Shown: positions 37,831 to 44,145 of the stretch, in pieces
How positions within the stretch are numbered: position 1 is the stretch's first letter
Layout of the letters: each line of letters opens with the position of its first letter
NCBI GenBank assembly: GCA_013285825.1
Contig: JABDGV010000001.1
Span: 167,242 to 231,241 of the forward strand
Length of the DNA stretch: 64,000 nt
Direction: 5' to 3'
Origin: Bacteroidota bacterium
GTDB taxonomy: Bacteria > Chlamydiota > Chlamydiia > Chlamydiales > FEN-1388
The notes under the pieces: model-generated
Database searches by the model: none
Told to the model about the DNA's origin: nothing
Seen by the model: only the letters and a program-made list of their open reading frames with translations
Position numbers and translations under genes: made by a program

Positions 37831-37913
37831 GCTCGGGTGGTGAAATGGTAGACACTGGGGACTTAAAATCCCCTGGGAGCGATCCCGTGCCGGTTCGAGT
37901 CCGGCCTCGAGCA
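37831..37913 (+). tRNA. tRNA-Leu (anticodon UAA), class II with long variable arm; CCA not encoded
   Basis: Manual cloverleaf. Acceptor GCTCGGG/CTCGAGC (one G-U pair). D arm GTG..CAC. Anticodon arm GGGGA-CTTAAAA-TCCCC. Variable stem GGGA-GCGA-TCCC. T arm GCCGG-TTCGAGT-CCGGC. Confidence 0.95.
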
Positions 37914-37971
37914 TTTGCGTTCTCGTATATCTGTAACTCTCTTGTGCAAATATCCCACTGTGTAGTATACT

Positions 37972-38319
37972 TTGGATATGAAGAGATTATTCGTACAGAT
38001 TCGTAAATTCTCACAAGTGCTTGACTCTCTCATACAACAGCGGAAGCTCATTCCAAAAGACTTCGATGATTTTCAGAAACGCTTATTAGAAAACCCAGAT
38101 GAGGGTGAGGTAATCCAAGGCACAGGCGGCCTTAGAAAAACTCGCCTAAAGTCAGCCTCTGGTGGGAAAAGTGGAGGTTTTCGAGTCTGTTACTTGGATA
38201 TTCCGGAAAAAGAAATATTATTCTTAGTGGTGATATTTCCTAAAAATGTCCAAGAAAATCTCTCCAAAGAAGAGACCAAAGCCCTAAAGGCTTTCGTAGA
38301 AAAATTAAGGAAGGAGTAA
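37972..38319 (+). CDS. type II toxin, RelE/HigB-2-like (GGLRK..R / GKSGG.RV.Y family)
   Basis: GTGGLRKTRLKSASGGKSGGFRVCYLDIPEKEILFLVVIFPKNVQENLSKEE, the typical motif string of this toxin family. Lies 5 nt upstream of its antitoxin. Confidence 0.75.
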   Translation: MDMKRLFVQIRKFSQVLDSLIQQRKLIPKDFDDFQKRLLENPDEGEVIQGTGGLRKTRLKSASGGKSGGFRVCYLDIPEKEILFLVVIFPKNVQENLSKEETKALKAFVEKLRKE

Positions 38320-38324
38320 GGGAT

Positions 38325-38666
38325 ATGAGTAAATTTTTTGATGAGCTGAAAGATGGTCTCGAAGAAGCTCTTGAGTACCAGAAAGGAAAAGTAACGCTGA
38401 GAACAACCTCAGTGGAATTGCCAGAACCACCTGCACAATATACCGCCAAAGATATTAAGCGTATTCGCGCGCGAGAACAGTACTCACAGGGAGTGTTTGC
38501 TATGGTCTTGAACGTAAGCCCTAAAACCATACAAGCATGGGAATCTGGCGAACGCAGTCCAAGTCATGCAGCTTTACGACTTTTAGAAATTGTCGACAAA
38601 GGTATTTACCACCCAACGTTTCAGGGAAAGGCGAGCAATACAAAAGCCAAGTACGCAACGCGATAA
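38325..38666 (+). CDS. HTH (XRE/NadS-like) antitoxin
   Basis: IKRIRAREQYSQGVFAMVLNVSPKTIQAWESGERSPSHAALRLLEIV, an HTH with the conserved W-E-x-G-x-R-x-P tail. Confidence 0.75.
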   Translation: MSKFFDELKDGLEEALEYQKGKVTLRTTSVELPEPPAQYTAKDIKRIRAREQYSQGVFAMVLNVSPKTIQAWESGERSPSHAALRLLEIVDKGIYHPTFQGKASNTKAKYATR

Positions 38667-38944
38667 AGATTGAACCCATTGTATAGGTGTGGTTATGCAT
38701 TCTGTAAATAAAGCAAGACATGTGAAAGATTATCAAATCATTCGATCATAAGAAAGAGCCTCTCCCTCCCCTTCTTTCAAAAATGTCTTATTAGACAAAG
38801 ACACCAAGCTTTTTACATTCTTAGACTCTACTAATGAAGTCTTATTTATACTACCTAAAATAGTGTTATTTATATTAATTATAATTACTGTTATCATATT
38901 TTTAATTAGTATGTAAATTAAACAAAATTTATTTAAGCTTATTT

Positions 38945-41405: not shown

Positions 41406-41644
41406 CGTTATTATCCCTTCAAACTTGTTCGTGCATTCCCCACAGTTACAGATGAAGTAAGCCTTTGAGCAGGTTCAAAATGATAAGTAGCTTTCATTGC
41501 CTAATGCGCCAAATATAAATTCAGTATTCCAGGGTCAACCAATACATCTCATGTTTTGCTGATCGATTTGTGCATATTCTTTGCAGCCATAGCAATTAGA
41601 TAATGTACTCTCACTTGATAATTAGATTTGGCGTCTTAATTCCA

Positions 41645-41726
41645 AGGACCACAGGCAGGACAATACGTATCCTTATTTCCCGTAAACTTCTGGTATCAAA
41701 AGGCTATCGGTAAAGCCATAGCTTGA
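41645..41726 (+). repeat. Island repeat, copy B
   Basis: AGGACCACAGGCAGGACAATACGTATCCTTATTTCCCGTAAACTTCTGGTATCAAAAGGCTATCGGTAAAGCCATAG. See copy A. Confidence 0.7.
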
Positions 41727-41760
41727 TGCAAGAGCTCTAATGTAACTGATCTAATGCCAC

Positions 41761-43965
41761 TTAATCGAGTTGTAGCTTGGTATAATCGCTCTCTTTGATC
41801 TTTGAAAGATCATAAACTCTCATTGTTGCGTCGGCGCCTACAGTGACAATTCTTCCATCAGGCAATTGGGTAGCACAGCGAGCCCAGTCTACGTGCCCGC
41901 CAAAATTCATATCCAATTTCCTTTTTCCATTCATGTCTTTCCACAATTTCACAGTCGAATCCTTTGCAGAGGAAAGTATTGATTTGTCTTGCATGAGGAA
42001 GAGATGAAGGACTTCATCAGCATGTCCCTCAAGAGTATCATCTAACTCAATCAAGGATTGGCTATCTTTAACTGTCATAGGATCATGCAATTTCCAAATC
42101 TTAATCTTCTTATCCTTAGAACACGTTGCAAATCCATTTGGACACTCGATTATGCCACGAATAGAATCGTCATGAGCTTTCCACTCCATCACCTTCGTCG
42201 GCTGTTTGTCATTTCCATTCCAAATCGTAACCGTGCCATCACCACATCCTGTTACAAAGTAGTCTCCCTTGAGGCTCTTCAAATTACAAATAGTGAATGC
42301 GGTTCCATTCTTGACATTTTCATTCACAGTCGTAACAACAGGGGTTGGCAGTTCACCATTTTTCGGTACTTCAATAGTTGGTATTTGAAAAGTATAAAAA
42401 GTGCCATCACGACATCCAGAACGAATAATCATGTTGCCCTTTTCATTCAGTCGTCCAGCAACACAGTTGACACTTGATTTATGCTTCAGTGTATGTAGAA
42501 GTTTTCCAGTGTCGATTTCAAAGATCTTTACAGTCTGGTCCCAAGAGGCTGTTGCAGCAATTCCAGGAGAGACCACCTGAACATCACGAATTTCGTGAAG
42601 GGGATGGCTGCAAATTTCTTTACTTTCCCAGGTCGTCGTGTCCCAAAGGCGTACTGTTTTGTCAAATGAGCAAGTAAGCAATTTGTTATCTCCAAACGGA
42701 GAACAGACGATGATTTGATGTTTGTGTGCATCCGGGATCACGAATGGGTAGTCATTCGTGTGAGGTTTGATTTGCACTACATTGTCACCTAATATCTTCG
42801 TTGTTACATCTGCGTAGTTGTACATGGTTTTCTGGTTCGATGCAGTTCTCATTTTCTCCAATGTTGATATATCGCGTCTGAGATTGGATGCCATAAACAT
42901 GAATGCTTCAGGAAACTTTGATAAGGCTTTTACAACTACTTCTGGTTGGTCCTGAAACGCGGAGATACATTTCCCATTCTTCTCAACAATGGAGAGAACG
43001 GTAGAAGTGTACTCTTTGTCAGACTTCATTTTATACAGGTGAAAGAAGGGCAAATAACTCTCACCATTTGCTTGCTGACAACATTCTTTCATGAAATCCA
43101 AATCTGTTGAAAAGTGGAATTCACCGATACCAATGTAGGCAGGATCTATCGGAATGACCCAATTTGCTAAGTAGTTGAAGTTTTTGACAACTTCCAACAT
43201 GGCCGTGCGATTCTCTTTCCATGGAAAATGTTTCATTAAAGAGACGTCATAATTAATAGCTTCAGCCGCAATTCGGTAGTACTCGTTGGATTCAGACTTT
43301 GGATTGAGGGCAGAGAAGGCACGACGATGCATCTCTAAAGCACCTTTGTTTCCTCCAGATTGACGGAAGCTTTTTCCCAATCCAGAACTCTTATCATTTT
43401 GATACGCCAATGCCAACTTATTATAGATTACTGGTCTGTCTAGTCTCGATAACTTTGAAGCGTCGGAATTTAAGTATTCTGCAATCAGGCTAAGGATTTC
43501 AATACCGTCCTTGTGAGCAGTGAGATATTGTTCGATTTCAGCATCGATCAGTTTTGTCCAAAAGGTGATCTCTTCTTGATTTTTGTCTTTTGTCTGCTCG
43601 GTTGCAATCTTAATCTGATTTTTTAATCGAAGGGCGATGTTCTTCTCTTGGCATGCAGCTGCAATATCTGTAACGGGTGAAAGGGATTGATTCTTAATTT
43701 CAGTAAAAGTTGATGTAGCTTGTCTATTCCAAATATATGTGACTGAATCAACTTTGAGACTCTCATCATTAGGATGTGCGAGAATTTTTTTGTCTTTGAG
43801 AAAGGTGTTATAGCTAAGGGCATCGTAATAGCTCTTTACGCCATTCGATTCAATTACAGCTAAAACATAGGGACAACCATTTTTTTGGTTGTTGACCAGT
43901 GTCTCGATTGATTCAGATTTAAATGTACATTTAATATTTTTAATATCATCAAGTTTAGTAATCAT
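41761..43965 (-). CDS. eukaryote-like WD40-repeat protein (unknown N-terminal region of about 400 aa plus a 7-blade propeller)
   Basis: Seven blade-closing motifs are spaced about 40 aa apart: DKTVRLWD, DQTVKIFE, DGTFYTFQ, DGTVTIWN, DKKIKIWK, DSTVKLWK, DATMRVYD. Confidence 0.85.
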   Translation of the reverse strand: MITKLDDIKNIKCTFKSESIETLVNNQKNGCPYVLAVIESNGVKSYYDALSYNTFLKDKKILAHPNDESLKVDSVTYIWNRQATSTFTEIKNQSLSPVTDIAAACQEKNIALRLKNQIKIATEQTKDKNQEEITFWTKLIDAEIEQYLTAHKDGIEILSLIAEYLNSDASKLSRLDRPVIYNKLALAYQNDKSSGLGKSFRQSGGNKGALEMHRRAFSALNPKSESNEYYRIAAEAINYDVSLMKHFPWKENRTAMLEVVKNFNYLANWVIPIDPAYIGIGEFHFSTDLDFMKECCQQANGESYLPFFHLYKMKSDKEYTSTVLSIVEKNGKCISAFQDQPEVVVKALSKFPEAFMFMASNLRRDISTLEKMRTASNQKTMYNYADVTTKILGDNVVQIKPHTNDYPFVIPDAHKHQIIVCSPFGDNKLLTCSFDKTVRLWDTTTWESKEICSHPLHEIRDVQVVSPGIAATASWDQTVKIFEIDTGKLLHTLKHKSSVNCVAGRLNEKGNMIIRSGCRDGTFYTFQIPTIEVPKNGELPTPVVTTVNENVKNGTAFTICNLKSLKGDYFVTGCGDGTVTIWNGNDKQPTKVMEWKAHDDSIRGIIECPNGFATCSKDKKIKIWKLHDPMTVKDSQSLIELDDTLEGHADEVLHLFLMQDKSILSSAKDSTVKLWKDMNGKRKLDMNFGGHVDWARCATQLPDGRIVTVGADATMRVYDLSKIKESDYTKLQLD

Positions 43966-44092
43966 AAATTCTCTTTTTTTGCTAAATTATAAAGATAAAT
44001 ATAATTGTAGTAAAGTTCTCTCTCCAATAGCTTGAATTGCAATAGTGGTTGCTTTTCAAGTGTTTACGTATCGTAAAGAAGTTGCTGGCAAT

Positions 44093-44145
44093 GATGTGTA
44101 GGGTGACCTAAGAGCTCACCCTAAGCAGGTTCTTAGCCTTGAGTA
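44093..44145 (+). pseudogene. second, more decayed tRNA-Leu-derived scar (related to the 39980-40043 copy)
   Basis: GAGCTCACCCTAAGCAGGTTCTTAGCCTTGAGTA compared with GAGCTCGCCCTAATCTTAGTCTTAGCCTCGAGCA in copy 1. It retains GGTTC of the T arm. Confidence 0.5.

Follow-up and report, generated by a model that had tools for sequence, protein, structure and literature searches.

The 6.2 kb of DNA that follow the 3' end of a tRNA-Leu(UAA) gene in an environmental chlamydia are, in our reading (to which we give a probability of roughly 0.6), the product of tandem site-specific integration (accretion) at the 3' part of this tRNA gene, since decayed and now devoid of an integrase. The gene lies in a stretch of 64,000 nucleotides (assembly GCA_013285825.1, contig JABDGV010000001.1, positions 167,242–231,241; hereafter the window), the sequence of which is also present in the assembly of run SRR8423505. 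Two scars accompany the gene, one clear (scar B) and one weaker (scar D), which most likely represent the eroded end sites of former insertions of mobile elements. Integration is supported because scar B is intergenic, co-oriented with the tRNA and runs from the anticodon stem to the discriminator base, which is the signature used in island mapping (PMC4383910), and because scar D, also intergenic and co-oriented, is the reciprocal best match of scar B. It is further supported because a second repeat (E 3e-14) occupies the same relative position to the left of B and at a third boundary, and because a drop in G+C content, a break in synteny with a related locus (L008) and a phage-type toxin-antitoxin pair are all found at the tRNA. 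The locus is most likely a fossil of the well-known process that produces tRNA-borne islands and reveals no new mechanism.

Two scars downstream of tRNA-Leu

The tRNA gene and the two scars are as follows:

37831–37913, plus strand: intact tRNA-Leu(UAA) gene (ARAGORN; Rfam tRNA model, 54.9 bits)
39991–40043, plus strand: scar B, a tRNA-Leu 3' fragment with anticodon arm and start of the variable arm matching at 22/23 positions, a non-tRNA centre, and the last 10 nt matching at 10/10
44094–44145, plus strand: scar D, a degraded unit of the B type and reciprocal best match of B, with the anticodon loop lost and the non-tRNA centre of B kept

The tRNA-Leu(UAA) gene is the only tRNA gene found by ARAGORN in the window, and the portion that recurs is its 3' part (37858–37913). 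In scar B, positions 39991–40013 agree with 37858–37880 of the tRNA at 22 of 23 positions (blastn-short E 3e-5), and a collinear block at 40034–40043 is identical to 37904–37913 over all ten, so that B starts at the second base of the 5' strand of the anticodon stem and ends at the discriminator A. The local alignment of B with the tRNA scores 41, clearly above the maximum of 28 obtained for ca. 3000 random 130-nt segments of the window. An initial annotation of the sequence had placed a copy at 39980–40043 on the basis of the 22/23 match and the identical end, and this copy is indeed real. A tRNA 5' half is not detectable upstream (p 0.16), which makes B a 3' fragment; it lies between genes, in the orientation of the tRNA and 2.1 kb downstream of it. 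Scar B is a genuine 3' fragment of tRNA-Leu(UAA).

The distribution of its mismatches indicates that the damage to B is concentrated in the centre rather than being the result of uniform decay: the flanks (anticodon arm, variable-arm start and last ten bases) contain 1 mismatch in 33 positions, the centre (variable loop and T-arm) 18 in 23 (Fisher p 2.6e-9). A full-length tRNA pseudogene was considered for B and rejected, as the 5' half is not significant and the tRNA covariance model gives neither B nor D a score. The same applies to a structured RNA at B, D or the arm repeat described below, which fold no better than shuffled sequence (z-scores −1.6 to +0.8).

Scar D is linked to the tRNA by way of B only. 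Its own resemblance to the tRNA is not significant (alignment p 0.14; z of ca. 2, with several better chance matches; E 0.27 with a profile built from the tRNA and B). However, it is the reciprocal best non-self match of B in the window (nhmmer E 0.0045–0.0072; BLAST E 0.016–0.033), with an identity of 76% and a local score of 33 versus a maximum of 25 for random window segments. The similarity reaches ca. 50 nt upstream of the tRNA-like part (p 0.009), and over ca. 110 nt the score of 60 exceeds that of all 3178 null segments, both strands included; the common unit begins at ca. 39931 in the B copy and at ca. 44041 in the D copy. Like B, scar D is intergenic and co-oriented with the tRNA, from which it is 6.2 kb away. 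The initial annotation regarded D as a more decayed tRNA copy; the relationship stands, via B, while the direct similarity to the tRNA does not reach significance.

The centre of the scars bears on how they arose. D agrees with B against the tRNA in 10 of the centre columns, B with the tRNA against D in 1 and D with the tRNA against B in 1, and both scars are shorter by ca. 4 nt, so that the 3' strand of the T-stem is missing. Because the derived centre and the T-arm shortening are shared, B and D have a common ancestor that was already without a working T-arm when it was copied. They are copies of one already-inactive unit and not independently decayed halves of a working tRNA, and the earlier description of both as decayed copies of the intact tRNA has to be given up in view of the ten shared centre states.

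A second repeat and the composite boundary unit

A repeat of ca. 81–95 nt, which was missed in the initial annotation, sits to the left of B and to the left of a fourth tRNA-like candidate (41728–41765):

39833–39930, plus strand: non-coding arm repeat, copy 1, located ca. 60 nt to the left of scar B, with TTTCTGGTAA twice in perfect tandem at 39887–39906
41625–41720, plus strand: non-coding arm repeat, copy 2, at a boundary without a recognisable tRNA-like scar; the stop codon of a WD40 gene lies 41 nt further on

Positions 39852–39930 and 41640–41720 are 81% identical (E 3e-14), and with gaps the alignment extends to 39833–39930 and 41625–41720. Both copies share a minus-strand peptide (“...NKDTYCPA...”), for which no homologue was found among 5.8 billion proteins. 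As the mismatches show no codon-position bias (5/7/6), the indels measure 1, 1 and 4 nt and there is no protein homologue, the repeat is non-coding. A relic of an integrase or transposase gene is rejected on the same grounds, the indels not being multiples of three. Copy 2 contains two degenerate versions of TTTCTGGTAA; as an enriched arm-type binding motif TTTCTGGTAA was rejected, with 6 matches in the window versus 6.4 expected.

The fourth candidate itself, put forward as a weaker tRNA copy, is at chance level versus the tRNA, B and D (p 0.78, 0.38 and 0.41, respectively), and was not recovered by a profile of the tRNA, B and D even at E ≤ 100. It overlaps the stop codon of the WD40 gene, whereas island mapping asks for a fragment that does not overlap conserved coding sequence. 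It is therefore abandoned as a scar, and copy 2 of the arm repeat marks the boundary beside it.

Arm and scar together form a composite boundary unit of ca. 190 nt, which consists of a ca. 95-nt arm, a spacer and the pseudo-tRNA 3' half. It is complete at 39833–40043, reduced to the arm at 41625–41720 and to spacer and pseudo-tRNA at ca. 44041–44145; the units are 19–24% diverged, and the segments between them are mutually dissimilar. No further copy was found in the 64-kb window, in the 9 kb to its right or in the other loci fetched. Since the unit is thus confined to this locus over 73 kb, it is tied to tRNA-Leu and is not a dispersed repeat. The motif common to B and D gave 0 matches in the JGI metagenomes and IMG/VR, and patterns of the tRNA half in IMG/VR yielded complete phage tRNA genes only.

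The ten derived centre states and the T-arm shortening common to B and D are also what would be predicted if a single integration at tRNA-Leu had left one scar unit (arm plus pseudo-tRNA) that was duplicated locally after its T-arm had decayed. The duplication, with or without adjacent DNA, would have proceeded by unequal crossing-over or replication slippage between tRNA and scar; the copies would then have diverged, and the WD40 segment would have been inserted into or fused to the second copy, splitting its arm (41625–41720) from its pseudo-tRNA (D). In line with this, the identities of the arms (81%) and of B and D (76%) are compatible with one divergence time, and exactly the WD40 gene separates a boundary with an arm only from one with a pseudo-tRNA only. 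However, the dissimilarity of the segments between the units would require extensive differential loss or replacement, homologous exchange would have had only very short blocks of identity (23 and 10 nt) to work with, and the mismatches in the tRNA-matching flanks (1/33 in B versus 4/19 in D) hint at unequal ages. We consider this history, the main rival to accretion, unlikely.

The probable insertion site

The window derives from an environmental chlamydia. The MtnA-like protein encoded just upstream of the tRNA has its nearest relatives at 66–75% identity, and those annotated at source are labelled as metagenome-assembled genomes (MAGs) of Chlamydiae, Parachlamydiales or Verrucomicrobia. One related locus (L008; run SRR21362523), with an MtnA that is 71% identical, possesses seven upstream genes in matching order, a conserved tRNA promoter block and a tRNA-Leu that is identical to that of the window at 83 of 83 positions. 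Similarity stops at the first base 3' of the tRNA, and from there on the DNA is unrelated: L008 carries a SnoaL-like gene after the tRNA, which is absent from the window. L008 is the only relative locus that keeps synteny, and its contig ends 600 nt past the tRNA; in the five MtnA-linked loci from GTDB (66–69% identity), the tRNA is not present. The L008 contig terminates in a perfect 22-nt palindrome, TAATCGGTTATATAACCGATTA (L008:11845–11866), which is probably the cause of the assembly break.

In the window itself, the G+C content is 0.45–0.47 in the 8 kb left of the tRNA versus 0.35–0.41 from 38 kb to ca. 60 kb. The sharp drop and the synteny break relative to L008 at the tRNA 3' end bear out the insertion at this position that was initially proposed. 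The tRNA-Leu(UAA) gene is the integration target, on the attL side, and these observations support its 3' flank as an insertion hotspot.

In a further chlamydial genome of 2.3 Mb (L010:11800–18613), a tRNA-Leu(UAA) gene and the MtnA operon are 6.7 kb apart and oppositely oriented. On the 3' side of this tRNA gene lie a Bro-N gene and DDE transposase fragments; tRNA-Leu(UAA) may be an insertion hotspot in that lineage, too.

Search for a recombinase

Families of phage integrases, recombinases and transposases were searched for in all open reading frames (ORFs) between 37.9 and 63.3 kb and in the called genes onward to 73 kb. The earlier remark that no cognate recombinase is visible holds for the island and for ca. 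10 kb beyond the window, and the intergenic gaps of the island are too short to conceal an integrase. The sole recombinase of the window is an XerC-like tyrosine recombinase (16131–17120, plus strand) that follows dapF and precedes ackA, at a distance of 21 kb to the left of the tRNA. It scores 308 bits as XerC (NCBIfam cut-off 335) versus 103 bits as integron integrase and is of the housekeeping type. An element of the dif/Xer type (integrative mobile element exploiting Xer, IMEX) was considered and rejected, since here a tRNA end is the target and the XerC-like gene has the classic housekeeping neighbourhood, dapF-xerC.

The likeness to a cassette array to which the initial annotation pointed is superficial. 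As in integrons, segments of one or two genes are parted by related non-coding sites. However, there is no adjacent IntI, the only candidate being the XerC-like gene 21 kb off, and no attI; the boundaries are tRNA-derived direct repeats and not attC hairpins (no attC model was run), the WD40 gene lies on the opposite strand, and two genes have promoter-like sites of their own. The locus is not an integron and not a new cassette system.

A bolder variant would have the units of B and D as working recombination sites of small integrase-less cassettes of one or two genes, inserted at and excised from tRNA-Leu, after the fashion of integrons or satellites, by a recombinase whose gene lies in another part of the genome or on a plasmid. 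If true, this would represent a tRNA-anchored gene-capture array in an obligate intracellular chlamydia that accumulates eukaryote-like effector genes. Each segment does contain one gene or two, intact and equipped with a promoter and a terminator of their own, the boundary units are mutually homologous, and the anticodon stem-loop core of B is near intact. Yet D is without the anticodon loop and the third boundary without any tRNA-like site, the units have diverged by 19–24% with no conserved structure found, the unit motif is unmatched in the metagenome and viral collections, the cargo has no plasmid or viral homologues, and the XerC-like gene beside dapF is the window's sole recombinase, none of the integron type having been found. 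Such live capture seems to us highly improbable.

Proposed formation of the locus

The preferred reading, accretion followed by decay, can be cast as a sequence of steps. An element with a tRNA-like attachment site would have recombined with the tRNA gene; this would have restored the tRNA gene, while a piece of tRNA in the same orientation stayed behind where the insert ends on its far side. Inserts would then have accumulated, either two or more related ones or a single one together with a duplicate of its end, after which the integrase and any transfer genes would have been lost. The survivors would be the toxin-antitoxin pair, three stand-alone genes and the boundary units. A tyrosine integrase would be the maker of the scars, and the number and order of the integration events and the position of the crossover are likewise inferences. 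Since the dead T-arm is common to B and D, the unit was most likely located on the element side of the crossover, which would place the crossover in the last ca. 10 nt (GCCTCGAGCA); the alternative is a duplication of the unit that followed its decay. Three versions fit: (i) each related element laid down the unit afresh, with strand exchange in the last ca. 10 nt; (ii) a single scar unit decayed first and was then duplicated; or (iii) the arm at 41625–41720 and the pseudo-tRNA D are one unit split by the WD40 segment. Williams reportedly described, in 2002, an asymmetric class of tRNA integration sites at the 3' end. The paper on the Islander island-mapping method mentions a subsite at the T/acceptor junction (PMC4383910). 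A candidate attachment-site pattern is GGGACTTAAAATC...GCCTCGAGCA.

Repeated integration at the same attB had been proposed before. The hotspot and a co-oriented, intergenic, tRNA-derived boundary speak for it, while of the boundaries only B is demonstrably derived from the tRNA. The accompanying idea that each event stacked a small cargo is not needed, the integrase-less segments of 2–4 kb being better read as leftovers of decay.

Several observations weigh against accretion. No integrase, excisionase, transposase, transfer gene or recognisable fragment thereof was found between 37.9 and 73 kb. Scar D is only moderately significant and has no detectable similarity to the tRNA itself, and the dead centre common to B and D is not predicted by the simplest stacking model, in which every new insertion pushes the 3' half of a functional tRNA aside as a scar. 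The low-G+C stretch reaches ca. 60 kb without a terminal scar. With the best MtnA identity at 71–75%, neither an empty site nor alternative occupancy of the segments could be shown among the relatives. The 357-aa gene of the second segment is a paralogue of a resident gene in a core context, so that the cargo is not obviously foreign, and the three homologues of the 273-aa gene of the first segment that were looked up all lie in a conserved neighbourhood free of tRNA genes.

Some of these points would be accommodated if no site-specific integration had occurred at all and the locus were a fast-evolving effector or accessory region, in which B is the remnant of a duplicated tRNA-Leu and the similarities of arm copy 2 and D are due to chance or slippage. 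The missing integrase, the intragenomic paralogue of the 357-aa gene and the moderate significance of D agree with this, as does the fact that tandem tRNA duplicates are known in chlamydiae (PMC548262). However, B lacks a tRNA 5' half and its match ends exactly at the tRNA 3' end, the arm repeat (E 3e-14) cannot be due to chance, and B and D are reciprocal best matches that are both co-oriented and intergenic. Moreover, synteny and G+C content break exactly at the tRNA end, and a phage-type toxin-antitoxin pair adjoins the tRNA. We regard this explanation as quite improbable.

Comparison with known systems

In the Islander survey, tandem arrays at a single tRNA gene make up 125 of 3919 islands, and damaged fragments are also noted (PMC4383910). 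Our locus shares several features with these tRNA islands: an intact tRNA, a co-oriented downstream 3' fragment that runs from the anticodon stem (the “anticodon-centred” class) to the 3' end, a break in composition at the tRNA, and more than one fragment after one tRNA. The fragment at 2.1 kb (B) reaches the tRNA 3' end, that at 6.2 kb (D) matches B only, and both are intergenic and span distances within the 2–200 kb considered by Islander. The locus differs in that its fragments are damaged in the T-arm, its segments are only 2–4 kb long and its second fragment matches the first rather than the tRNA. Each member of a tandem array is defined as having its own tRNA fragment and its own integrase (PMC4383910), whereas here two fragments and one arm-only boundary occur without an integrase in any segment, that is, among the ORFs between 37.9 and 63.3 kb or the called genes to 73 kb. 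The locus thus falls outside both the integrase filter and the tandem-array definition.

Another parallel is provided by cis-mobilizable elements (CIMEs), which are remnants that derive from integrative and conjugative elements (ICEs) or integrative and mobilizable elements (IMEs) by decay and retain their att sites (Pavlovic 2004, Bellanger 2011, cited in PMC5704250). That source documents accretion as a route of integration, decay to an integrase-less remnant flanked by att sites, and renewed integration beside the remnant (PMC5704250). Integrase-less segments with attachment-site-like repeats stacked at a tRNA 3' end fit this three-step route as set out there, and no integration or transfer genes were found. 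The attL site (tRNA 3' part) is intact; in B the stem-loop and the 3' end are near intact and the centre is dead, and in D the loop is lost. Our locus differs from CIMEs in these degraded att-like sites, D being without the core loop and one boundary without a site, and in having no partner ICE or IME known in the lineage. No related ICE or IME was found, and the metagenome and viral collections searched do not contain the unit motif. Judging from the state of the sites, present-day mobilisation of the locus in cis appears unlikely.

Within the chlamydiae, a precedent is Pam100G of Protochlamydia amoebophila UWE25, an island of 100 kb that is located at tRNA-Gly, has 17-bp repeats and carries tra genes, transposases and phage genes (PMC548262). 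It has three direct repeats, one of which is internal and mismatched, from which its authors infer a complex, modular history (PMC548262). Both loci occur in an environmental chlamydia, start at a tRNA, are bounded by direct repeats and have a third, mismatched internal copy. The locus studied here, however, comprises 6 kb at tRNA-Leu, has no mobility genes and shows longer, composite boundary units.

These results indicate that, in an environmental chlamydia resembling the Parachlamydiales, mobile DNA has landed at the 3' end of tRNA-Leu(UAA), and they enlarge by one case the sparse record of islands at tRNA genes in Chlamydiae. They also suggest that at least part of a 22-kb region of low G+C content, rich in eukaryote-like genes (WD40, Ser/Thr kinases, TIG-domain), was assembled at tRNA-Leu. 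More generally, tRNA “scars” can be copies of each other and not of the tRNA; a tally of scars can therefore exceed the true number of integrations that occurred independently.

Cargo and neighbouring genes

The cargo between the tRNA and scar D consists of:

37978–38666, plus strand: toxin-antitoxin pair, with a RelE-like toxin (37978–38319) and a helix-turn-helix (HTH) antitoxin, NadS/MqsA-like (38325–38666)
38945–39766, plus strand: 273-aa ChaC/gamma-glutamylcyclotransferase-like protein, cargo of segment 1 (predicted fold, YGSL motif)
40259–41332, plus strand: 357-aa protein, cargo of segment 2, with a promoter-like site at 40205–40234 and a terminator hairpin at 41384–41405
41761–43965, minus strand: 734-aa WD40 beta-propeller protein (Pfam WD40 E 3e-30), between arm copy 2 and scar D

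The toxin-antitoxin pair that adjoins the tRNA, already recognised in the initial annotation, is of a mobile-element type: it matches Pfam PF06296 and PF01381 (NadS family match below the curated cut-off) and the phage-associated families phrog_5869 and phrog_2104 (E ca. 1e-22). The earlier call of the 273-aa protein as similar to gamma-glutamylcyclotransferase (GGCT) is upheld by its predicted ChaC/GGCT fold (AlphaFold2 mean predicted local distance difference test score 69; top Foldseek PDB matches ChaC2/GGCT, E 1.7e-4). This protein has no Pfam match and only 5 distant homologues (29–34% identity), in which the YGSL motif is invariant; those annotated or examined are encoded on contigs of chlamydia-like MAGs.

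The 357-aa protein was initially called an orphan. It has, indeed, no family match and only 5 homologues among 1.84 billion representatives, but it is no orphan in the strict sense, as the assembly from the same sample (SRR8423505) encodes a 51%-identical paralogue of 576 aa beside a HemN-like radical-SAM gene (L015:1692–3422). In the relative that also provided L008 (L016:8001–9624; SRR21362523), a homologue occurs in the same HemN-adjacent context; it is represented there by a called gene of 64 aa (71% identical over the N-terminus) and, after it, one of 483 aa. Searches for plasmid or viral homologues of the cargo genes gave no match, nor did metagenome contigs for the 357-aa gene.

Core genes (transaldolase, 7TM-HD, DnaX, YbaB, SNF transporter, MtnA) occupy the left side of the tRNA. 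To its right follow, in order, the RelE-like/HTH pair, the 273-aa and 357-aa genes, the 734-aa WD40 gene (minus strand), a TIG-domain gene and a gene for a Ser/Thr-kinase-like protein, past which accessory-looking genes continue to ca. 60 kb. Core genes then return, i.e., those of an RlmD-like methyltransferase and an AdoMet decarboxylase, followed outside the window by a V-type ATPase operon. To the right of scar D, positions 44178–52141 hold eukaryote-like or effector-like genes in low-G+C DNA without a recognisable boundary repeat, among them genes for a TIG-domain protein, proteins of 800 and 290 aa with kinase domains, a cupin and a glyoxalase. An ORF of 549 aa without a family match (59759–61408) contains a 15-nt tandem repeat at 60290–60339 (AAAGATACCAGTCCA-like, 3 copies). 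The AT-rich intergenic stretches 38831–38935, 49122–49218, 53681–53745 and 59620–59754 are mutually similar (E 5e-5 to 0.02), which could reflect a common promoter architecture or mere AT-richness. Finally, positions 56892–59635 (minus strand) carry three tandem paralogous genes for S-adenosylmethionine-dependent methyltransferases (317, 310 and 297 aa) with a DNA identity of 61–75% and a unit spacing of ca. 880–970 nt.

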